Positions 10,793 to 45,198 are shown, counted from the stretch's first letter. The stretch is 64,000 bases of DNA from Beijerinckiaceae bacterium (GCA_965198485.1 CBDAPQ010000005.1:3712129-3776128); one strand, 5' to 3'. Notes: generated from the letters alone by a model not told the origin. Numbers and translations are program-made.

Positions 10793-12595
10793 ATGGCCTC
10801 CGTACCGCTCGACAACATCCGCAACTTCTCCATCGTCGCGCACATCGACCACGGCAAGTCGACGCTCGCCGACCGGCTCATCCAGACCACCGGCACCGTC
10901 GCCCTGCGCGACATGAGCGAGCAGATGCTCGATTCCATGGACATCGAGCGCGAGCGCGGCATCACCATCAAGGCGCAAACGGTGCGGCTGGAGTACACGG
11001 CGCAGGACGGCAAGACCTACATCCTGAACCTGATGGACACGCCCGGCCACGTCGACTTCGGCTACGAGGTCAGCCGCTCGCTCGCCGCCTGCGAGGGCTC
11101 GCTGCTGGTGGTCGACGCCTCCCAGGGCGTGGAAGCCCAGACGCTGGCCAACGTCTACGCCGCCATCGAGGCCGGCCACGAGATCGTGCCGGTGCTGAAC
11201 AAGATCGACCTGCCCGCCGCCGAGCCCGAGCGGGTGAAGCAGCAGATCGAGGACGTCATCGGCATCGACGCCTCCGACGCCGTGTCGATCTCGGCCAAGA
11301 CCGGCATCGGCATCGACCTGGTGCTGGAGGCCATCGTCAAGCGCCTGCCGCCGCCCAAGGGCGACGCCGCCGCCCCGCTCAAGGCGCTGCTCGTCGACAG
11401 CTGGTACGACGCCTACCTCGGCGTCGTCGTGCTGGTGCGGGTGCTCGACGGCAGCCTGCGCAAGGGCCAGCGCGTGCTGATGATGGGCGCCGACGCGCGC
11501 TACGAGGTCGACCGCATCGGCGTCTTCACCCCCAAGATGAAGGACGCGCCCATTCTGGGCCCGGGCGAGATGGGCTTCATCACCGCGCAGATCAAGCAGG
11601 TGGCCGACACCCGCGTCGGCGACACCATCACCGATGCCGGCAGGCCCTGCGACGCCGCGCTGGCCGGCTTCAAGCCGGCACAACCGGTGGTGTTCTGCGG
11701 CCTGTTCCCGGTCGATGCCGCCGATTTCGAGGCCCTGCGCGCCGCCGTCGGCCGACTTCGGCTCAACGACGCCAGCTTCTCCTACGAGATGGAGAGCTCC
11801 GCCGCGCTCGGCTTCGGCTTCCGCTGCGGCTTCTTGGGCCTGCTGCACCTCGAGATCATCCAGGAGCGGCTGGAGCGCGAGTTCAACCTCGACCTCATCG
11901 CCACCGCCCCCAGCGTCGTCTACGAGATGAAGCTGCGCGACGGCACCCAGGTCAGCCTGCACAACCCCGCCGACATGCCCGACCCCACGCAGATCCTGGC
12001 GATCGAGGAGCCGTGGATCCGCGCCACCATCCTCACCCCCGACGAATACCTCGGCAACGTACTCAAGCTCTGCCAGGAGCGCCGCGGCGTGCAGGTGGAC
12101 CTCAACTACGTCGGCAGCCGCGCCATGGCGGTCTACGACCTGCCGCTGAACGAGGTGGTGTTCGACTTCTACGACCGCCTGAAATCGATCTCGAAGGGCT
12201 ACGCCTCGTTCGACTACGCCATCACCGACTACCGCGAGGGCGACCTCGTGCGCATGAACATCCTGGTCAACGCCGAGCCCGTCGACGCCCTCTCCATGCT
12301 GGTCCACCGCGACCGCGCCGAGGGCCGCGGCCGCGCCATGGTGGAGAAGCTGAAGGACCTCATCCCCCAGCACATGTTCGTCATCCCCGTGCAGGCGGCG
12401 ATCGGCGGCAAGATCATCGCTCGCGAGACCGTGCGCGCCATGCGCAAGGACGTCACCGCCAAGTGCTACGGCGGCGACGTCTCACGCAAGCGCAAGCTGT
12501 TGGAGAAGCAGAAGGCCGGCAAGAAGAAGATGCGGCAGTTCGGCAAGGTGGAGATCCCGCAGGAGGCGTTCATCGCGGCGCTGAAGATGGAGTGA
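10793..12595 (+). CDS. lepA: Elongation factor 4 (translational GTPase LepA)
   Basis: [29 protein letters not shown] and NKIDL G-motifs, plus the conserved LepA C-terminus ...[35 protein letters not shown]. Confidence 0.97.
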
Positions 12596-12748
12596 GGGGT
12601 TCGGCATGGCGGTCGGGACGGGTTTCGGCAGAGGCACCGGGCGCTCCTGGTGTCTTGCCGAAGCGTTCATTTAGGTATCTTAACCGGTTTCCAACGACGC
12701 GTCCACCTCCAGCCGCCCTCGGGAACGCGGCCCTGTCGCGTCGCGAGC

Positions 12749-12881
12749 CCTGACATGTGACCCTGCCAAAGTCAGGGTACCGCGACACAAACAGGGGCCG
12801 GTGTCAGCGTACCGCGACATGAAACCCGGCCATCGGCGCGAACCGCGACAAGGGTCGATTCCGAGTGGTCGTTCGGCGACA
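12749..12881 (+). repeat. Array of 4-5 direct repeats with 31-32 bp period (core CGCGACA)
   Basis: Cores are at 12781, 12813 and 12844 (GTACCGCGACA / GAACCGCGACA), with degenerate units at 12749 (CCTGACA) and 12875 (GGCGACA). One inverted core, TGTCGCG, is at 12734-12740. Confidence 0.7.
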
Positions 12882-12920
12882 TGACGAAAGTTTCATGCTT
12901 GGCGGGAGGCGATCGGCGGT

Positions 12921-12960
12921 CGTGGAGGCAGCGTTTATCGCAACGCTGAAGATGCCGAGG
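12921..12960 (+). repeat. Short decayed remnant of the lepA 3' end
   Basis: GTGGAGGCAGCGTTTATCGCAACGCTGAAGATGCCGAGG compared with lepA GTGGAG...GAGGCGTTCATCGCGGCGCTGAAGATGGAGTGAGG. Confidence 0.5.
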
Positions 12961-12980
12961 CGGGCCGGAAATGACAGCCT

Positions 12981-13272
12981 ATGATCCTCATCCGCCAGAC
13001 TGAAGCTTTCGCCGACTGGTTTGCCGGCTTACGCGACGAGCGCGCCGTCGCCCGCGTTTCGGCGCGGCTTCGCCGTATGGCCCTCGGCAATCCCGGCGAT
13101 GTCTTATCTGTCGGCCAGGGCGTCAGCGAAATGAGGATCGACTACGGGCCGGGAATACCGCATCTACTACAAGCAAATCGGCACCGAAATCGTGCTTCTG
13201 CTGTGCGGAGGTGACAAGAGCAGCCAGAAACGCGATATTGCTCGGGCGATCGTCCTGGCTTCGCTGGAATAA
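12981..13272 (+). pseudogene. Addiction-module killer protein (RelE/ParE superfamily, HigB-like), frameshifted
   Basis: The listed ORF stops at 13214. From 13156 the +1 frame reads [38 protein letters not shown], the expected family C-terminus. One extra A lies in GGAATAC at about 13154-13155. Confidence 0.8.
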
Positions 13273-13274
13273 CC

Positions 13275-13577
13275 ATGCCGCTCAAAACCATGCCATGGGA
13301 TGTCGCCGACCATCTCGGGAGCGACAGCGCCATCGCCGCTTATCTGGATGCCTGCCTGGAAGACGGTGACCCGAAGCTCGTGGGTGCGGCGCTCGGCGAT
13401 ATCGCGCGCGCCAAGGGCGTCACCGACCTCGCGGCGCGAACAGGGCTGCCGGTTGCCATCCTCGGACGCGCTTTGTCCGGCGAAGACATTCCCGATTTTG
13501 CGACCATCGTGAAGGTCATTGCCGCATTGGGTTTGCAGCTCGGTGCTCGATTGGCACCTGCGGCGAATGCGGCTTGA
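13275..13577 (+). CDS. Addiction-module antidote protein (HTH, HigA-like)
   Basis: 100 aa, starting 2 nt after the repaired toxin stop. DVADHLGSDSAIAAYLDACLEDGDP...IARAKGVTDLAARTGL is typical of the cognate antidote family. Confidence 0.85.
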   Translation: MPLKTMPWDVADHLGSDSAIAAYLDACLEDGDPKLVGAALGDIARAKGVTDLAARTGLPVAILGRALSGEDIPDFATIVKVIAALGLQLGARLAPAANAA

Positions 13578-13578
13578 G

Positions 13579-13806
13579 TTCATGGTCGTCACCGCCGTGC
13601 AGGCCGCTATCGGCGGCATTATCGCCCGCGAGACGGTGCGCGCCATGCGCAAGGACGTGACAGCAAGTATTGCGGCGTCGACGTACCCGTAAGCGCAAGC
13701 TGCTGGAGAAGCCGAAGACCGGCAAGAAGAAGATGCGGCAGTTCGGCAAGGTGGAGATCCCGCAGGAGGCGTTCATCGCGGCGTTGAAGATGGAGTGAGG
13801 GGTTCG
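13579..13806 (+). repeat. Displaced, decayed copy of the lepA 3' end (about 228 bp, includes stop codon)
   Basis: Collinear with lepA 12373-12603. By my manual alignment the last ~105 bp differ at only about four positions. The upstream part has indels and an in-frame TAA. Confidence 0.9.
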
Positions 13807-13977
13807 TGGTTCGAGATGATGCGTGGTTCGAGAAGCGCCTTCGGCGCTCCTCATCATGAGGGAGTTTGAAGCGCTCCCATGCCCCTCATGGTGGGGAGGT
13901 GCGCAGCGCCGTCTCGAACTACGCACGACCTTGCCGCGCGCGTACCGACCAGATAGCCTCATCTGAGGCAAGTCGAG

Positions 13978-14056
13978 GCGCAAGGACATCACCGCCGAGT
14001 GCTATAGCGGCGACGTCTCCCGCAAACGCAAGCTCTTGGAGAAGTAGAAGGCCGGC
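13978..14056 (+). repeat. Third lepA 3' fragment (internal 79 bp)
   Basis: GCGCAAGGACATCACCGCCGAGTGCTATAGCGGCGACGTCTCCCGCAAACGCAAGCTCTTGGAGAAGTAGAAGGCCGGC aligns to lepA 12442-12520. Similarity ends abruptly at 14056. Confidence 0.8.
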
Positions 14057-14059
14057 TTC

Positions 14060-14584
14060 TTATTTTGCATAGAAAAGGTGTTGCGCAAGAAGAAAGAGGA
14101 CGGAAGCTATAATCGACGCAATAATACCACTGATAAAGCCAAAAAGGCGCTCCTTCCAAACTTGAGCTTGTGTCGGAAATCCGACTACGCGCCGAAACTC
14201 GGCGGTATCTACTTCTGCTACTTTTTTCAAAGTGTCGAGCTGAGTGTCGAGCTGCTGCTTCTGTTTTTCAGCATCAGCAATTCGCGCCAAAGCACGCTCA
14301 AGCTCGACTTTATTTGCGCTCGCCTGCTCTCGCAAATCGTCGACTGCGCGTATAGCATCCTGCAGGTTCTCTCTAGCCGCGTCGATTTTTCGAATGCGAT
14401 CATCAAGACTTATGTCGCTTGGCTCTGCGACGATATCGCGGAGGATCGCTGGCCGGCGGTATTCCGGAATGACGAGACGTAGAAGCTCTTCTATAATGTG
14501 AAAGTAGGCACGAAAAATATCGAAAAGGATACGGGCTACCGCCACAAACAGGCGGTACATATTTTTTCTAGCCTTGCTCGTCAT
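14060..14584 (-). CDS. Hypothetical coiled-coil protein with C-terminal transmembrane anchor
   Basis: 174-aa ORF in AT-rich DNA. Central heptad-like region (RENLQDAIRAVDDLREQASANKVELERALARIADAEKQKQQLDTQLDTLKK) and terminal TM LFGFISGIIASIIASVLFLLAQHLF. It lies 21 nt downstream of the split gene, on the same strand. Confidence 0.6.
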   Translation of the reverse strand: MTSKARKNMYRLFVAVARILFDIFRAYFHIIEELLRLVIPEYRRPAILRDIVAEPSDISLDDRIRKIDAARENLQDAIRAVDDLREQASANKVELERALARIADAEKQKQQLDTQLDTLKKVAEVDTAEFRRVVGFPTQAQVWKERLFGFISGIIASIIASVLFLLAQHLFYAK

Positions 14585-14605
14585 TGTCTAATCTCATATC
14601 AATGC

Positions 14606-14907
14606 TTAAAACGGGATGTCGTCATCGACTTGGCTAGAGGAAGATTGATTCAAATGCCTTATATGTTTATTGTTTATATCATTGCCTAATCCACGCGAAG
14701 GTGCAGGCAGAGCTTTCGGCGGCGGAGTTAAGCGCTTCTGCGCTGCGTCTTCTGTTTCTTTGTCTTGACCAATTAATTGCATGATGTGCGCGATGGCGCT
14801 TTGTCCGTCAGCAGCGATTGTTGTCACGTTTGCAATAGCAGCTATGGCAGCCAGTACAGCCATGGTCTTTGCAAAGCTTAGACGCTGGTCGGACACATCT
14901 CCTGCTA
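14606..14907 (-). pseudogene. 3' portion of the IS-interrupted gene; product ends ...SSSSQVDDDIPF
   Basis: In frame with the 5' portion once the IS is removed (see findings). It contains the hydrophobic segment AVLAAIAAIANVTTIAA, a Pro/Ser-rich linker and an SSB-like tip. Confidence 0.8.
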
Positions 14908-15757
14908 GGCTCAGGACTCATTCTTGTCACAGCCAGAAGATGACGATTGCTGCGATGACGATGGCTGACATGAAGGTGTGGCGCAACGATCGTAGCGGGT
15001 GGCGACGCGGCGCCAGTCCTTGAGGCGGCCGAACATGTTCTCGACCTTGTGGCGGACCCTGTAGATCGCGCGGTCGTAGGCGTGCTGGACCTTGCGGGTC
15101 TTGCGCGGTGGGATGCAGGGCCTGATGCCCTTGTCTTCGAGCGCGGCGCGGTAGCCGTCGCTGTCGTAACCGCGGTCAGCGACGAGGACGTCGGCCGCTG
15201 GCAGCGCGTCGAGCAGGAAGGCGGCGCCGGCGTGGTCGCTCATCTCACCTTCGGAGAGCAGCATGGCGACGGGGCGGCCCTGGCCATCGCAGACCGCGTG
15301 CAGCTTGGAGTTCAGGCCGCCCTTCGTGCGCCCGATACGGCGGGGTAAAGCCCCTTTTTGAAGAGGCTCGCTGCAGTGCGATGCGCCTTGAGATGGGTGG
15401 CATCGATCATCAGAAGATCGGGCTCCCCGGCCCAGCCCGCGAGGGCGGCGAAGATGCGGTCGAACACGCCGAGCCGGCTCCAACGGACGAAGCGATTGTA
15501 GAGCGTCTTGTGCGGACCATAGTCAGGTGGCGCATCGCGCCAGCGCATGCCGGTGCGGATCACGTGCACGATGCCGCTGAGAACACGTCGGTCGTCCACG
15601 CGGGCGATGCCGTGCGACAGCGGAAAGTAAGGTTCGATCCGCGCCATCTGCGCGTCCGAAAGCCAGAACGAATCATCCATGCAGCGCACCTCCCAACCGC
15701 ATGGAATCATCAGCTCGACCTGGCCGAAAGCCTGCCGACGTTAATAGGTCCTGAGCC
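14908..15757 (-). mobile_element. IS5-family insertion sequence (IS427/IS1031-like), about 850 bp
   Basis: Terminal inverted repeats GGCTCAGGAC(T/C)(C/T)ATT... at both ends (10/10 bp, then 16/21). TA is duplicated at 14906-07 and 15758-59 within a reconstructed CTAG target. Two overlapping transposase frames. Confidence 0.9.
14911..15680 (-). CDS. IS5-family DDE transposase (orfA 15312..15680, orfB 14911..15483; putative -1 frameshift)
   Basis: OrfA reads MDDSFWLSDAQMARIEPYFP...RWRDAPPDYGP..TLYNRF.RW and orfB reads ...LHAVCDGQGRP...DRGYDSD.....L...GI.PCIPPRK...YD...Y..RH.VENMFGRLKDWRR.ATRYDR. The frames overlap at the run CAAAAAGG (A-run 15355-15359). Confidence 0.85.
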
Positions 15758-16255
15758 TAGCTGGTCAAGCCTTTGAAAAATTCGCTCCTTCCGCTCGGCA
15801 TCTATATCGGAATTAATTACAAGCTCACGTATCCTCAAAATATAATGATCGATCTTGGTCCGCGTGCTGCCCGCAAGCAACACCGAATAGGGGTGCCGCT
15901 CGCCGCGCTGCCGAATACGGATTCGTGCGACTTCTCCTTGTACAGCCAAACTAAACCGGGAGAAAAAGCTATAAACGTCCTTGTCATCCGGATCATAATA
16001 AACGTTCGCAATACGGCACTCTTGAGCCACAGCTGCTACAGCAGCCATGTATTGATCACGAACGGCCTGATCGAACTCTGAGGTGGTATTCTCGTCGATC
16101 ATCCGAGTCATGTTGCGCCGGCAAATGTTTTCAAACTCAACAAAACAACGCTCATCATCCTCGGGAAGAGAATTATATTCGTCTTCAGAGATTAGCTCGT
16201 AGGCCATAATTAATTCGTCCGGTTGTCTGCATAAACCAGATTCGAGTGAGTTCAC
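15758..16255 (-). pseudogene. 5' portion of the IS-interrupted gene (acidic N-terminal region, unknown function)
   Basis: The last 16 codons of listed ORF 15710..16255 (GSGPINVGRLSARSS*) are read from IS sequence. The native frame continues at 14905. The likely start is ATG 16207 (MAYELISEDEY) or GTG 16255. Confidence 0.8.
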
Positions 16256-16295
16256 GAAGGGAGATGCGGTGTTTTAGCTGATCAGGCGGATTGCC

Positions 16296-16523
16296 TCAGC
16301 AAGGGTCCTTCCGAAAATGATCCGGGTTGGCATGATCGTGGAGATGGCGGACGCGGGCGACGTGGACGGGGCGGTAGCCTTCGGCGCAGGCCTTGTCCTT
16401 GGCCTCGTGCTGCGTCTTGAACGAGCCGTGCTTTTCCTCGCCGCCGGTCACGATGACGTAGTGCGAGACCGTGGCCTCCTTGTCCGTGCTCTTCGGCCTG
16501 TGCTCGATGTAGGCGGCTGCCAT
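16296..16523 (-). CDS. Small hypothetical protein (75 aa)
   Basis: ATG 16523 is preceded by GGGAG at a suitable distance. Product: MAAAYIEHRPKSTDKEATVSHYVIVTGGEEKHGSFKTQHEAKDKA... Confidence 0.5.
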   Translation of the reverse strand: MAAAYIEHRPKSTDKEATVSHYVIVTGGEEKHGSFKTQHEAKDKACAEGYRPVHVARVRHLHDHANPDHFRKDPC

Positions 16524-16673
16524 GGCGTGCTCCCGTAGGTTGCGGACAAGCGTAGGGGCACTCGTGACGCCGGACAAGACGCCGGCAACCGGCGTGCACA
16601 GCCTTGAAGCCTACATCCGAATGCATCGGCGCGGTCCGCGCGGGTCTGTCCCTGGAAGGCACGGCTGGCAGGG

Positions 16674-16766
16674 GAACCCATCCGGATTTTCTTGTCGATG
16701 ACGGCGCCAGAGGCGCCGCCGCCTGCCGCGGTCGCAGATCATTGACAAGAAAATCCGGATGGGTTC
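16674..16766. repeat. Perfect 23-bp inverted repeat separated by 47 bp
   Basis: GAACCCATCCGGATTTTCTTGTC (16674-16696) and its exact reverse complement (16744-16766). Confidence 0.9.
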
Positions 16767-17572: not shown

Positions 17573-18070
17573 TTACGCCGCCTTCGCCGCCGCCGGGTTC
17601 ACGCTCTTCTCGGCGATGCGGTTGAACTGCACGTCGCCGGCCTTGCTGTCCTTCAGCGCCTCCTGCAGCGGCTTCAGCGCCTCGGTTTTGCCGGCGGCCT
17701 TGGCGTACGCTTCCATCGAGCCGTAGGACGCCACGCGGAAGGCCTGCTGCTGGTTGGCGGCGACGATGAGGGCGGCGTCGCGCACCGGGCCCATCTCGGT
17801 CTCCTTCACCATGCCCTGCACCTCGTGCACCATGGCGGTGGCGATCTTGTTGTCGTTGGTCTTCACCGGCTCTCCGATGGCTTTGAACACCGCCTCGAGC
17901 TGCTGGGCGTAGTGCTGGCTCTTGGTGGCGGTCTTGCCGAACAGCTCCTTGAGGTCGGCATCGTGGCTGGCCTCGGCCATGGCGGGGGCGGCCTTGGCGA
18001 TCTGGTGCTCGAAGTCGAGCACGTAGGTCATGGCGGTCACGAGCAGCTCGTGGATGGTCTTGATGGTCAT
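17573..18070 (-). CDS. DUF892 / YciE-YciF-type ferritin-like stress protein
   Basis: MTIKTIHELLVTAMTYVLDFEHQIAKAAPAMAE...LKELFGKTATKSQHYAQQLEAVFKAIG matches the YciF-family pattern. GGAGA Shine-Dalgarno sequence before ATG 18070. Confidence 0.8.
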   Translation of the reverse strand: MTIKTIHELLVTAMTYVLDFEHQIAKAAPAMAEASHDADLKELFGKTATKSQHYAQQLEAVFKAIGEPVKTNDNKIATAMVHEVQGMVKETEMGPVRDAALIVAANQQQAFRVASYGSMEAYAKAAGKTEALKPLQEALKDSKAGDVQFNRIAEKSVNPAAAKAA

Positions 18071-18259
18071 GCGATCTCCTGGGTGCCGGGTCGCCTCTAC
18101 GGCGACCGCGAGCGCCCAATCCGAACCGGGGGCGCGCGTTGCCTCGCCCCCCTCCGGCATACGAGGGACATAAGCGCGCGCGGCAGCCGCTTGAGCCCCT
18201 CCCCTCGCGCCGGCCGGCGGCCTGATGCGCCTAGCCGCGGTCCCGACGAAAGGCTGCGC

Positions 18260-21247: not shown

Positions 21248-22033
21248 ATGCTGACCGGCCCAGAGATCGAGCGCTACGCCCGCCACATCGTGCTGCACGA
21301 CGTCGGCGGCCCCGGCCAGGCCAGGCTGAAGGCCGCCCGCGTGCTGGCGATCGGCGCCGGCGGCCTCGGCGCGCCGCTGTTGCAATACCTGGCGGCGGCG
21401 GGCGTCGGCACGCTCGGCGTGGTCGACGACGACACCGTGGCGCTGTCCAACCTGCAGCGCCAGGTGCTGCACGGCACGCCCGACGTCGGCCGGCCCAAGG
21501 TCGAGAGCGCCGCCGAGGCGATCCGACGGCTCAACCCCCACGTCACCGTCGTGCCCTTGGCCGAGCGGCTCGACGCTGGCAATGCCCGCGCGCTGGTGCG
21601 GGGCTGGGACGTCGTCGCCGACGGCTCCGACAATTTCGCCACGCGCTACGCCGTCTCCGACGCCTGCTTCCACGAGGGCGTGCCGCTGGTGAGCGCGGCG
21701 GTGGGCAGCTTCGACGCCTCGCTGACGACGCTGCGCCCGCACGAGCGCGACGCCGAGGGCCGACCGAATCCAACCTACCGCTGCCTGTTCCCGCAGGCGC
21801 CCGAGGCGGGAGCCGTTCCCAGCTGCGCCGAGGCCGGCGTGCTCGGCGCGCTGACGGGGATCGTCGGCGCGATGATGGCGCTGGAGGTGATCCGCGAGAT
21901 CGTCGGCTTCGGCGAGGGCCTCGTCGGCCGCCTCGTGCTCATCGACACGATGGGCATGCGCTTCGAGACGCTGCGCTACGGCTGGGACCCGGCCAATCCG
22001 CTGAGCGGGGGCGGGGCGGCGAGCCCGCGCTAG
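21248..22033 (+). CDS. moeB: ThiF/MoeB/HesA-family adenylyltransferase
   Basis: ERYARHIVL..VGGPGQARLKAARVLAIGAGGLGAPLLQYLAAAGVG.LGVVDDD.V.LSNLQRQ. The start could be ATG 21206, 21239 or 21248. Confidence 0.8.
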   Translation: MLTGPEIERYARHIVLHDVGGPGQARLKAARVLAIGAGGLGAPLLQYLAAAGVGTLGVVDDDTVALSNLQRQVLHGTPDVGRPKVESAAEAIRRLNPHVTVVPLAERLDAGNARALVRGWDVVADGSDNFATRYAVSDACFHEGVPLVSAAVGSFDASLTTLRPHERDAEGRPNPTYRCLFPQAPEAGAVPSCAEAGVLGALTGIVGAMMALEVIREIVGFGEGLVGRLVLIDTMGMRFETLRYGWDPANPLSGGGAASPR

Positions 22034-22270
22034 CGAGGTCTCACGTTCATCGATACCCGGATTATGGCCGAGCGAGCTGCAGTACACGGTCCTCTCGCGG
22101 CTAGAACACAGCCACTCTGAGCGACGTAGACGAGCTTCATAACTTCCATGGTCGTCTTGAACGGCAAGATACCGAAGCGGGATTGCGTGTCGTTCCTAAA
22201 ATATGCAAGCCGCCCGACAGACCCGACCCTTACGAAAGCACGTTGCTCGAAGCGAACGAGGGGGCAGACG

Positions 22271-22435
22271 GTGAGTAAGGACGCAAAAGCATCGGCGGCT
22301 CGGAAGCCTAAGCTCAAGGATAAGCGTACCTTTGCCAACTAATTTGAACGCTTCATCGCCAAGGCCCGTGAGCTTGGCCTTGATGAGCGGGAAGAGACGT
22401 CCGATACCGCGCTTACAAAGCGTGGTACGGCATAA
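22271..22435 (+). pseudogene. Small Lys-rich protein gene interrupted by an in-frame TAA
   Basis: GTG 22271, preceded by GAGGGGG, reads VSKDAKASAARKPKLKDKRTFAN*FERFIAKARELGLDEREETSDTALTKRGTA*. The stop at 22340-22342 is in frame with the continuation. Confidence 0.4.
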
Positions 22436-22449
22436 CGTTAAGGCACCAC

Positions 22450-22926
22450 CTAAGTCTGGTGAGCGTAAGCAACAACCCTGCAAAAGTAGCTTTTCTTATA
22501 GTCGGAGTTAACTCCAAATAATTCTTTCCTGCTTCGCTCGCATTCTGAACGTTTTTCGTACGTTTTATCGATTTTTTTGCCGTCTTCGCTTGTCTCGGCA
22601 GCGAAAAGTAATTTTGGTGACAAGTTATAAGACACATATATAGCGTATTGATACATATTAGGTCCGCAGCGATTTTTTAGAATTTGCCAAAGATCTACCC
22701 CAGCAAACTTAGATCCTTTCTCTATGTCAGCTCCGCTAAAAAGCGTCTCGACGCTTTCGCCCATCTTCAATTCAATATTACCAATTGATGTCCAGGTGGG
22801 GCCATCGCTGGTAAAAAGGAAATTGCCACAGCTTAAGTGCATGTAGTCAAACCAGTCATCATCAGAACGAGAGACATAGCTTGGTGGGAAGCAGGCGAGT
22901 AGCACCGATAAGCCGATCCGCAGCAT
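22450..22926 (-). CDS. Hypothetical lipoprotein (AT-rich islet)
   Basis: Lipobox VLLAC at residues 8-12. Markedly lower GC than the flanks. Confidence 0.55.
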   Translation of the reverse strand: MLRIGLSVLLACFPPSYVSRSDDDWFDYMHLSCGNFLFTSDGPTWTSIGNIELKMGESVETLFSGADIEKGSKFAGVDLWQILKNRCGPNMYQYAIYVSYNLSPKLLFAAETSEDGKKIDKTYEKRSECERSRKELFGVNSDYKKSYFCRVVAYAHQT

Positions 22927-22996
22927 GCCTCTCCTCCTGACGGGAGGGCTACGTACCTCAGATTGCCGTTGTGCGACAATGACATGGTCGCCGGAC

Positions 22997-37968: not shown

Positions 37969-38042
37969 GCCAAGCGCCGAAGGTCGGGCGCCGATCCCGG
38001 TAGAGTGGAGCCGATGACGTCGTCTTTCCGGGGCGGCGCAGC

Positions 38043-38169
38043 CGAGCCCGGAACCCAGGACAACGCGCTCGCTTGGATCGAGCGGCATCGTTCCGCCTCT
38101 ACTTTGACCGCGTTGTCATGGCTTCCGGGCTCGCCTTCGGCGCGCCGGAATGACGGACGCGGCGTGGCC
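38043..38169. repeat. Intergenic repeat element, family B (copy 1)
   Basis: Near-identical to 43821-43959. Has internal inverted arms CCCGGAACCCAGGACAACGCG / CGCGTTGTCATGGCTTCCGGG. Confidence 0.85.
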
Positions 38170-38195
38170 GTGGGTCATCTCCGCCGGGATGCGCT

Positions 38196-38510
38196 CTAGC
38201 GCCGGCTGTATCCTATTCCCGGGCGCGGCTTGCGGGCCAGCGCCAGGATCACCAGTCCGAGCACGCCCAGCACCGCCCAGGTCGGCAGCAGGAACACGCT
38301 GGCCAGGACAGGGTCCCACAGCAGCGGCGCTTTCGCGACGACGAAGGCGTGCAGATGCTCGAATCCCTCGGGCGAGATCCTGGACAGGGTGTCGCCGAAC
38401 GGGTGCAGCACGATCCTGTTGGCCGCCACCGACGTCGTGCCGTCGATGATGATCGCGGCGAACGCCGCGGCGAGACAGGCCAGGCCGAACAGGCGAAACA
38501 GCAGTCGCAT
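38196..38510 (-). CDS. Small membrane protein (3 predicted TM segments)
   Basis: 104-aa ORF with hydrophobic N-terminal, middle and C-terminal segments. Confidence 0.5.
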   Translation of the reverse strand: MRLLFRLFGLACLAAAFAAIIIDGTTSVAANRIVLHPFGDTLSRISPEGFEHLHAFVVAKAPLLWDPVLASVFLLPTWAVLGVLGLVILALARKPRPGIGYSRR

Positions 38511-43577: not shown

Positions 43578-43730
43578 CCCCTTCTCCCCTTGCGGGAGAA
43601 GGTGCCCGAAGGGCGGATGAGGGGTCGGGCAACCTCGCCGGTCCTACCTGCCGCCGCTCCCAATTTTCCAAGATCGCCCGACCCCTCATCCGGCGCTTCG
43701 CGCCACCTTCTCCCGCAAGGGGAGAAGGGA
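43578..43730. repeat. Intergenic repeat element, family A: two inverted copies
   Basis: CCCTTCTCCCCTTGCGGGAGAAGGTGCCCGAAGGGCGGATGAGGGGTCG (43578-43626) and its near reverse complement (43679-43730). Each contains the hairpin CCTTCTCCC-N5-GGGAGAAGG. Confidence 0.85.
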
Positions 43731-43820
43731 TCGTCCTGCCTGACTCTTTCCTTGCGAGCTGGTCCCGGCAAGGTGGAGCCGTCCACGTGGCGTCGTCTTC
43801 CCGGGGGCGAGCGAAGCGAG

Positions 43821-43959
43821 AGCCCGGGACCCATGACAACGGGACCCATGACACCGCGCGTGCCGGATCGAGCGGCATCGTTCCGCCTCTCTTTCGACCG
43901 CGTTGTCATGGATTCCGGGCTCGCCTTCGGCGCCCCGGAAAGACGGACGCGGGGTGCCG
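43821..43959. repeat. Intergenic repeat element, family B (copy 2)
   Basis: GGATCGAGCGGCATCGTTCCGCCTCT.TT.GACCGCGTTGTCATGG.TTCCGGGCTCGCCTTCGGCGC.CCGGAA.GACGGACGCGG is shared with 38075-38169. Confidence 0.85.
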
Positions 43960-44037
43960 CGGCTTGTTTGGCGGGATGCGCGCTTGCGTGCCGGACGTCG
44001 CTTCCGTTCAGATGTCGATTGATCAGGAGAAGCCACC

Positions 44038-44920: not shown

Positions 44921-44972
44921 CTCCTTCCCCCTTGTGGGAGAAGTGACGCGAAGCGCCGGATAGGGGGTCGCT
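44921..44972. repeat. Intergenic repeat element, family A (additional copy)
   Basis: CTCCTTCCCCCTTGTGGGAGAAGTGACGCGAAGCGCCGGATAGGGGGTCG lies directly after the stop of the 44038..44907 gene. A hairpin-only copy is at 17467-17489. Confidence 0.75.
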
Positions 44973-45198
44973 CGATCCTGGGAAGTTATGAGCCGCCGCG
45001 CATCGATCGATGGACGCGGCGGAGACAGCGTGCACCGCACGCTGAAGCCTAGTCTAGCACTACGATCCTCGTCGTGGAGACCACCGAAGGTTGAGGTGCG
45101 GCCCGATCCTTGCTCGAATTACGCGCGATTAACGCCGCTTTAACCATCCATCTCACCAAATGGTGTGAAGGCGGATTGGCGCGGGAAGGGATAGAGTT

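Follow-up and report, generated by a model that had tools for sequence, protein, structure and literature searches.

The displaced fragments of the lepA 3' end found downstream of the intact gene in a Beijerinckiaceae bacterium are most likely the scars of repeated DNA swaps at a hotspot that begins at the lepA stop codon. The DNA analysed, referred to below as the window, is a stretch of 64,000 nucleotides (nt) (GCA_965198485.1 CBDAPQ010000005.1:3712129-3776128), in which lepA, the gene of elongation factor 4, is followed by three fragments of its own 3' end separated by foreign genes and repeats. The reading proposed here, to which a probability of about one half is assigned, is that the segment between the lepA stop and the convergent orf93/DUF892 genes is a gene-exchange hotspot whose content turns over through lepA-anchored recombination, with no recombinase dedicated to it. 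It builds on the repeats themselves, on junctions shared with relatives, on the sharp borders of the hotspot, on the absence of integrases and on an identity gradient within the copies, from which a possible mechanism and order of events are put forward.

An earlier note on this DNA had described lepA as ending at 12595 with three further pieces of its 3' end downstream, all in the same orientation, and both the list of open reading frames (ORFs) and blastn bear this out. With the last 400 nt of lepA and its 3' flank as the query against the whole window, copy B (13581-13806) aligned to lepA 12373-12603 over 231 nt at 88.7% identity (E 5e-81). This is the copy of about 228 bp, with stop codon and 8 bp beyond it, of the previous description, its coordinates differing by a few bases, and the near-identical 3' end and upstream indels claimed for it were found as well: the last 119 nt are 96% identical to lepA, and the upstream part is 79-86% identical and carries indels. 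Copy C (13978-14056), already reported as a 79-bp internal fragment, matches lepA 12442-12520 over 79 nt at 89.9% identity (E 1e-25). The third piece, remnant D, is represented by a core at 12931-12954 that matches lepA 12566-12589 (24 nt, 87.5%, E 0.026). Its best ungapped local score of 20 was reached by none of 500 dinucleotide shuffles of 12604-12980 (mean 10.3 +/- 1.3, maximum 18). A remnant of about 40 nt is therefore upheld, with coordinates that shift some 6 nt leftward, from 12921-12960 to 12915-12954. All lepA copies lie on the + strand, in direct orientation around the cargo, and copies B and C are the strongest dispersed direct repeats of the window. An additional short match (12902-12919, 16/18 positions as in lepA 12391-12408) can be read in two ways, since the same stretch also resembles a repetitive extragenic palindromic (REP) element.

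Contigs from public runs X1-X3 that are 100% identical to the window span the passages from spacer S1 to remnant D, from the antitoxin gene to copy B, and from copy B through the REP-like element and copy C into the AT-rich block, and these junctions are therefore not assembly artefacts. The junction from lepA to S1 has no exact spanning contig in the public runs, because short-word unitigs break inside the repeat. The runs that hold window sequence include a lichen metagenome. The displaced lepA 3' ends are real, and the earlier note described them well. Coordinates of the features are collected in the table.

Table. Features of the lepA region in the window (positions counted from the first nucleotide; negative and positive lepA offsets are relative to the gene end; GC, guanine plus cytosine fraction; IS, insertion sequence)
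Feature	Position	Strand	Remarks
lepA (elongation factor 4), intact	10793..12595	+	600-aa ORF; relatives 91-97% identical, with LepA Pfam domains
Source repeat X: 3'-terminal 223 nt of lepA with 8 nt of its native flank (GGGGTTCG)	12373..12603	+	blastn against the window, alignment
Spacer S1	12604..12901	.	four CCGCGACA/CGGCGACA motifs (12780, 12812, 12843, 12874), 31-32 nt apart
Remnant D	12915..12954	+	decayed lepA -45..-6; 40 nt at 75%; just 5' of the toxin start
Toxin pseudogene, RelE/ParE family (TIGR02683 type)	12981..13272	+	+1 frameshift near 13150-13155
Antitoxin, intact (addiction module antidote, TIGR02684 / PF21716)	13275..13577	+	stop 3 nt before copy B
Copy B	13581..13806	+	lepA -222..+8; stop codon and 8 nt beyond; 5' half decayed, indels
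REP-like palindromic element S3	13807..13977	.	13820-13925 self-complementary
Copy C	13978..14056	+	lepA -153..-75; right side cut by AT-rich block; left junction as in the full copy of L081
AT-rich block	14057..16295	.	GC ~0.49 at 14-15 kb vs ~0.68 for the window
Coiled-coil ORF, 174 aa	14060-14584	-	inside the AT-rich block
~260-aa ORF, function not assigned	14606-14896 + 15765-16255	-	AT-rich block, split by the IS
IS5-family insertion sequence	14901-15764		22-nt inverted repeats, two-frame transposase
orf93, first conserved gene on the far side	16296..16577	-	blastn against relatives
DUF892 (YciE/YciF-like), conserved distal flank in most relatives	17573..18160	-	Pfam, synteny

The region was compared with 13 close relatives, selected at 91-97% LepA identity and covered up to 10 kb on each side of lepA, mostly as metagenome contigs, and with a wider set of 80 species-level loci across the alphaproteobacteria; loci carry labels such as L081. 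Named relatives at 86-90% LepA identity are Beijerinckiaceae metagenome-assembled genomes (MAGs), Lichenihabitans, Methylocella and Methylovirgula, and the exact window LepA is absent from the protein collection. Fragments of the lepA 3' end are present in five of the 13 (L081, L082, L083, L084 and L184), and seven have no copy (L085, L086, L087, L182, L183, L185 and L186). This comparison, which the earlier note had recommended, yielded single-event states alongside the copy-free ones: lepA, toxin-antitoxin and a lepA 3' copy in L084 and L184, and lepA, REP, GIY-YIG gene, REP and a lepA 3' copy in L081.

The full order in L084 is lepA, an intact toxin and antitoxin beginning 20 nt past the lepA stop, a lepA 3' copy, REP, GIY-YIG gene and REP, and its antitoxin stop is joined to lepA (at about -222) just as at copy B of the window. 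L184 carries the same lepA/toxin-antitoxin/lepA copy unit with an internal deletion in the copy. In both genomes the functional lepA end occupies the place, 5' of the toxin, that remnant D holds in the window. In L081, the closest relative by LepA (97%), lepA is followed by REP, the GIY-YIG gene, further REPs and then a copy starting at -154, whose left junction (…CCTCATCT(T)GAGGC…CGAG/GCGCAAGGAC, the slash marking the joint) is the left junction of copy C. The segment from copy B through S3 to copy C thus corresponds to the L081 series from lepA end to copy, with the GIY-YIG part deleted between the REPs. The L083 copy runs from -228 to the stop codon within AT-rich cargo, and in L082 an antitoxin truncated at its 5' end precedes a lepA remnant of 26 nt, distal to the GIY-YIG gene. 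Judged from these shared junctions, the window is a composite of modules that relatives carry singly.

Among the 80 wider loci lepA copies occur in only two, both Bradyrhizobium: a 119-nt copy at 95% identity, from -119, in a MAG (L077), and a 41-nt remnant 2 kb downstream of lepA in L050. The left ends of the fragments vary among events (-228/-222, -154, -119 and -45, with the L082 joint inside the antitoxin), and no core or crossover position is common to independent events. Two side observations concern lepA itself. A protein from another genus (P0002, 832 aa, on a contig of 235,650 nt) has a frameshifted last ~40% of lepA directly upstream of a complete lepA, fused in one ORF, so that here part of the gene is duplicated on its 5' side. 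A LepA match of 96% among species-level genome contigs is given by L001 (1,520 nt) alone, which terminates inside the lepA 3' end, as expected if a repeat there broke the assembly; it is labelled a Nakamurella MAG, a label that looks wrong for an alphaproteobacterial lepA.

The divergence of the toxin-antitoxin/lepA copy unit points to an old unit common to several genomes and speaks against its recent insertion into the genome of the window. At 4-fold sites the antitoxin diverges by 0.38 from that of L084 and by 0.58 from that of L184, and the neighbouring M50 peptidase gene by 0.34 and 0.48, respectively. Since the antitoxin has diverged in step with core genes and the same junctions are found in relatives, the events are old and common to these genomes. 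The copies are nevertheless kept close to the live gene at one end. Copy B agrees with its own lepA at 75/76 positions over the last 76 nt and at 122/147 in its 5' part (Fisher p 2.6e-4), and similar gradients are found in the copies of L084 (113/116 in the 3' part, 78/111 in the 5' part, p 7e-9) and L083 (77/80 and 119/147, p 1e-3). Additionally, the window LepA ends in KME* and 13/13 relatives end in KMDG*; the underlying private 3-nt deletion is common to window lepA and copy B and is found in 0/13 lepA genes of the relatives. An old unit that is yet so well matched and carries the private deletion indicates that the repeats still recombine. The simplest reading is that gene conversion or crossover between lepA and its copies may be ongoing, limited to the well-matched part. 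Nucleotide-level constraint or a sweep on the lepA 3' end was considered and rejected, as 4-fold-site diversity in the last 32 lepA codons is ordinary (0.16 vs a gene mean of 0.24, with 14% of equal-sized windows as low), and the gradient is therefore not explained by unusual nucleotide constraint.

What follows lepA is highly variable. Across the window and the 13 relatives at least 10 different gene sets occupy this position, bounded distally by orf93, DUF892, the GIY-YIG gene or a short-chain dehydrogenase/reductase (SDR) gene, depending on the genome. The cargo includes toxin-antitoxin pairs, GIY-YIG genes with REPs, an Mrr-type nuclease, an AAA ATPase with HNH, a trypsin-like protease with or without a CBS protein, a haem-oxygenase-like gene, Nmad2, an M78 peptidase, and AT-rich or unknown ORFs. 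Similarity ceases 0-8 nt past the lepA stop in 11/13 relatives and gives way to unrelated, often AT-rich DNA. The offsets concentrate at 0 and trail off to 1-3 and 7-8 nt, a distribution that looks like erosion rather than one fixed cut, and the stop codon itself is TAA in L183, L185 and the L083 copy. On the far side, blastn alignments to L081, L085, L183 and L184 restart at 16295-16299, that is, at the orf93 stop, which places the variable slot of the window at 12596-16295.

The clearest case of turnover comes from L085 and L086, two strains of a single sample that encode an identical LepA protein and whose two flanks agree at 99.2% and 99.0%. Between these flanks, 3,399 nt of L085 (11807-15205) are unrelated to 2,718 nt of L086 (2242-4959). 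The limits of the swap are the last base of the lepA stop and the end of the T-run of the DUF892 terminator, and neither a repeat nor a recombinase was found at either end. Two features of a hotspot are seen at the locus, varied cargo between the same core flanks and an exchange of cargo between flanks that are nearly identical. Borders that are equally sharp and lie at functional limits on either side agree with erosion of neutral DNA by many events to the limits set by selection, and less well with a one-sided attachment site. A contig of run X4 (depth 38) joins 12591 to 16295 and possibly comes from a strain with an empty slot; its short side measures only 22 nt.

The proposed mechanism would begin with incoming DNA of relatives, for which homology to the highly conserved lepA serves as the anchor. 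In the usual case a second crossover or joint would fall beyond the cargo, so that the cargo is replaced by double crossover in the core flanks and a clean swap results. If the second joint instead fell inside the 3' region of the recipient lepA, the donor would contribute an intact 3' end together with its cargo, and the old end would be displaced downstream. The route may be one-sided homologous recombination combined with illegitimate end-joining, or single-crossover insertion of a circle that carries a lepA 3' segment. Such lepA-anchored recombination would account for the variable left ends, the joint inside the L082 antitoxin, the copy-free relatives and the missing integrases.

Under this mechanism the window would record at least three nested events. 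The oldest may have produced copy C, by a joint of REP to lepA at -154 that is common to L081; the next may have produced copy B, by a joint of the toxin-antitoxin pair to lepA at -222 that is common to L084 and L184; and remnant D would have been displaced on arrival of S1 and the present 3' end. Later, gene conversion would have kept the copies similar to the resident lepA over their last ~76-110 nt as their 5' parts decayed, a REP-REP deletion would have taken out the GIY-YIG gene, and the AT-rich block with its IS5-family element would have cut off copy C. Remnant D is more decayed than its later displacement predicts, which would be explained only if conversion keeps copy B fresh and does not act on the shortened D.

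Several points weigh against the proposed hotspot mechanism. The events are read from their resulting junctions alone, and an illegitimate joint between donor and recipient, with the 3-10 nt of microhomology expected at it, is a prediction. Cargo sits at exactly +0 in at least 6 lineages, three of them with a TAA stop, which could mark a precise site-specific process. The -222/-228 left end recurs in L083 beside different cargo; this may trace back to the one old event, after which other cargo took the place of the toxin-antitoxin pair. Furthermore, 10 kb downstream of lepA was covered per relative, a span in which a remoter or trans-acting integrase would be missed.

An alternative explanation for direct 3'-end repeats around foreign cargo, which are its classic footprint, is serial integration of elements encoding a tyrosine or serine recombinase, with the lepA 3' end as the bacterial attachment site (attB), a replacement end in the element's attachment site (attP) and the integrases subsequently lost along with most other genes of the elements. 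Cargo beginning 0-20 nt past the lepA stop, a toxin-antitoxin pair as typical island cargo, and lepA 3' duplicates in two unrelated clades all agree with it, and precedents exist in the icd 3'-end duplication and the Salmonella lepA locus, both mentioned in PMC3603311. It is nevertheless judged rather unlikely. The 10 kb that follow lepA in the 13 relatives yielded no Pfam family of integrases or recombinases, and no integrase was found in ~80 further species or over the 51 kb of the window that lie beyond lepA, which agrees with and extends the earlier observation of none up to about 17 kb; a six-frame scan of 90 loci and the 64-kb window for the tyrosine-recombinase motif HxLRH[TSA], a crude test that excludes serine recombinases, gave spurious frames only. 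The only transposase in the region is that of the IS5-family element inside the AT-rich block. Nor was an attP-like carrier of a lepA fragment found: when the LepA C-terminus was compared by tblastn with 50,697 phage and 72,556 plasmid records, whole lepA genes alone were returned, in records that were mislabelled or resembled chromosomes; IMG/VR had 0 exact matches to a 23-mer from the conserved lepA end, and its 14 protein-level matches were all full-length host lepA; and a DNA search of plasmid records for the toxin-antitoxin pair with copy B gave none that covers both. The mobile element with a lepA 3' mimic sought by the earlier note was thus not found in phages, plasmids or IMG/VR, chromosomal integrative and conjugative elements lying outside the survey. 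The cargo is also tiny (615 nt in L084, consisting of toxin-antitoxin only and flush with both repeats), the left ends of the repeats differ by event, and the distal border of the slot is equally sharp without a repeat. Integrase loss in all 14 genomes and a different mimic length per event would have to be assumed. The nested order is consistent with the earlier idea of successive events that each place a fresh 3' end and cargo before the old one, but the cargo as degraded integrase-type elements is unsupported in view of the 13 relatives and the missing mimic. Two or three integrations in this genome itself are likewise unsupported, as the junctions are shared with L084, L184 and L081 and the divergence is that of core genes. 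With fragments shared among relatives and no mimic carrier found, the two outcomes on which that note had said its idea would fail, the integrase-element version largely falls.

A local origin that requires no horizontal transfer, in which the lepA 3' region was partly duplicated in tandem or underwent unequal crossing-over with the aid of the abundant REPs, and small genes were inserted between the copies later, is considered improbable as a full account. REP-like repeats do lie at several junctions, in L081 the REP that follows lepA is part of the duplicated unit, recombination among the repeats is demonstrable, and P0002 looks like a tandem partial lepA duplication. However, each event would require at least two steps, with cargo always arriving exactly at the duplication joint, and the cargo is foreign in composition, as seen in the low GC at 14-15 kb and the AT-rich cargo of L083. 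The modules also do not track LepA similarity, since L081, although closest, is without the toxin-antitoxin pair that L084 and L184 carry. Local duplication is possible for some of the steps. A still less probable alternative treats the units as integrase-free cassettes: a circle would loop out between lepA repeats and re-enter any genome whose lepA end is similar, by a single RecA crossover that leaves lepA intact, with the toxin-antitoxin pair favouring retention. The unit of lepA end, toxin-antitoxin and lepA copy is indeed flanked by 180-230-nt direct repeats in L084 and the window, and a decayed 5' part with a host-like 3' part is the expected trace of repeated crossovers within the repeat. 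On the other hand, neither a circular junction nor an independent re-insertion was seen, the toxin-antitoxin pair diverges in step with neighbouring core genes as under vertical descent, and antitoxin-family members in 80 metagenome loci, distant relatives at <=61-63% identity, never adjoin lepA. If cassettes of this kind existed, they would form a class of mobile DNA without its own recombinase, with the last 100-230 nt of a universal gene as a portable homology arm, and the identity gradient in the copies would be the footprint of repeated cycles.

Among known systems, e14 and phage 21 integrate at the 3' end of icd and supply a replacement 3' end. Like a prophage or island at a gene 3' end, the present locus shows an intact functional gene, cargo and then a displaced 3' fragment in direct orientation; unlike them, it has no integrase or phage genes, a cargo of 0.3-1 kb, fragment lengths that differ by event and a distal slot border without a repeat. 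Prophage integration that duplicates the icd 3' end is on record in a passage of PMC3603311, which also names lepA, citing Hermans 2006, as a reported prophage integration locus in Salmonella. The earlier note did not know lepA as a recognised attachment site, and for the alphaproteobacteria no literature on lepA in this role was found.

The locus is best assigned to a class already known, that of transfer hotspots which lie between core genes and lack integrases. Hotspots without mobile-element genes, in which turnover occurs via recombination in flanking core genes, have been described (Oliveira et al. 2017, PMC5635113), and the same core flanks, varied accessory genes, lack of mobility genes and swapped cargo (L085/L086) recur here. 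The double-crossover model predicts no duplication of flanking genes, whereas some events at this locus left partial lepA duplicates, and a one-sided or single-crossover variant of that model is therefore required. One-sided homology-facilitated illegitimate recombination (HFIR), shown experimentally in transformable bacteria according to a passage of PMC6382021 citing de Vries and Wackernagel 2002, resembles the proposed process in having one homologous anchor (here lepA) and a non-homologous joint at a variable nearby position, which decides between insertion, deletion and duplication. It differs in that HFIR is known experimentally only from naturally transformable species, whereas here a comparable process is proposed from the resulting junctions. 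What is unusual in the locus is the dated series of gene-end scars, which evolve in concert with the live gene.

In about half of the gene-transfer hotspots of bacteria no mobile element can be recognised, and the first entry of genes into them is poorly documented. The lepA locus offers natural evidence at nucleotide level, in the form of stop-codon and terminator borders, a clean swap in 99%-identical strains and an ordered set of lepA ends. If one-sided recombination is the correct explanation, gene-end scars could mark integrase-independent acquisition in other genomes as well. For programs that search for islands the locus is a caution, since direct 3'-end repeats alone do not indicate an integrase-type element.

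The cargo components listed in the earlier note, namely a repeat array, a killer/antidote pair, a REP-like element and an AT-rich cassette, were all recovered, the array with a period of 31-32 nt and the toxin with a frameshift. The array extends over 12747-12890 and consists of ~17-nt units (GTCAGGGTACCGCGACA and variants), within which the CGCGACA-type motifs of S1 sit, and ~15-nt spacers. No second copy of it occurs in the window or in 186 fetched loci. In run X4 its depth is 4997, against ~400-500 for the flanking lepA, or ~10x its neighbours; in metagenome runs its unit number varies and it is joined directly to the REP half at 13884. High depth, variable unit number and this joint suggest that the array belongs to a dispersed array-plus-REP repeat family. 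The joints of 12889, 12896 and 12852 to 13884 were considered as alleles lacking the toxin-antitoxin pair and are better explained as other genomic array-plus-REP copies.

The window toxin is matched in two frames when the intact L084 toxin is used as a tblastn query, and it is therefore a pseudogene. The extra base at 13154/13155 is missing in related strains of runs X4, X5, X2 and X10, so the break is either strain-specific or a sequencing error. The L084 toxin scores 132.3 bits against TIGR02683 (cut-off 62.85) and the window antitoxin 91.2 bits against TIGR02684 (cut-off 53.7), both above the curated cut-offs, and the genes are adjacent. As in the HI1419/HI1420 type of TIGR02683/TIGR02684 pairs, the toxin precedes the antitoxin with a 2-nt gap; unlike that type, the window is left with a lone antitoxin by the frameshift, and the association with lepA is specific to this clade. 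A conserved small ORF within the lepA copies was rejected, as the L084 and L083 copies carry different indels.

Repeats of the S3 type flank a small GIY-YIG gene in relatives. This REP-flanked gene (96-132 aa) is present in 8/13 relatives, always in the lepA-to-SDR neighbourhood, with the arrangement seen in L081 (5613-6797), L082, L083, L084, L087, L183 and L186; the gene is absent from the window, which keeps an empty REP pair. A role of the GIY-YIG protein as a homing nuclease aimed at the lepA end is unsupported, as the gene lies beside SDR in four relatives and is single-copy per locus. In Aminobacter aganoensis (L038), too, a GIY-YIG homologue follows lepA at a distance of ~500 nt.

Within the AT-rich block, removal of the IS5-family element restores a single reading frame of the ~260-aa ORF, and L081 has an Mrr-type nuclease gene at the position of the block. 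Beyond it the order is orf93, orf86 and DUF892. Rfam and tRNA scans of the region returned nothing relevant. In the orf93-orf86 gap a 28-nt inverted repeat (16674-16766, 96% complementary, 37-nt loop) has parts that recur in L081 and L087. Farther downstream, a second low-GC islet (22000-22950, GC 0.51 vs ~0.7 around it) with a 158-aa ORF (22450-22926, - strand) lies between ThiF-like and HAD-hydrolase genes. An intergenic direct repeat of ~220 nt, 77% identical, is found at 37995-38201 and 43763-43988, and short inverted pieces related to it pair 38021-38071 with 43895-43945 and 43650-43728 with 44923-44999.

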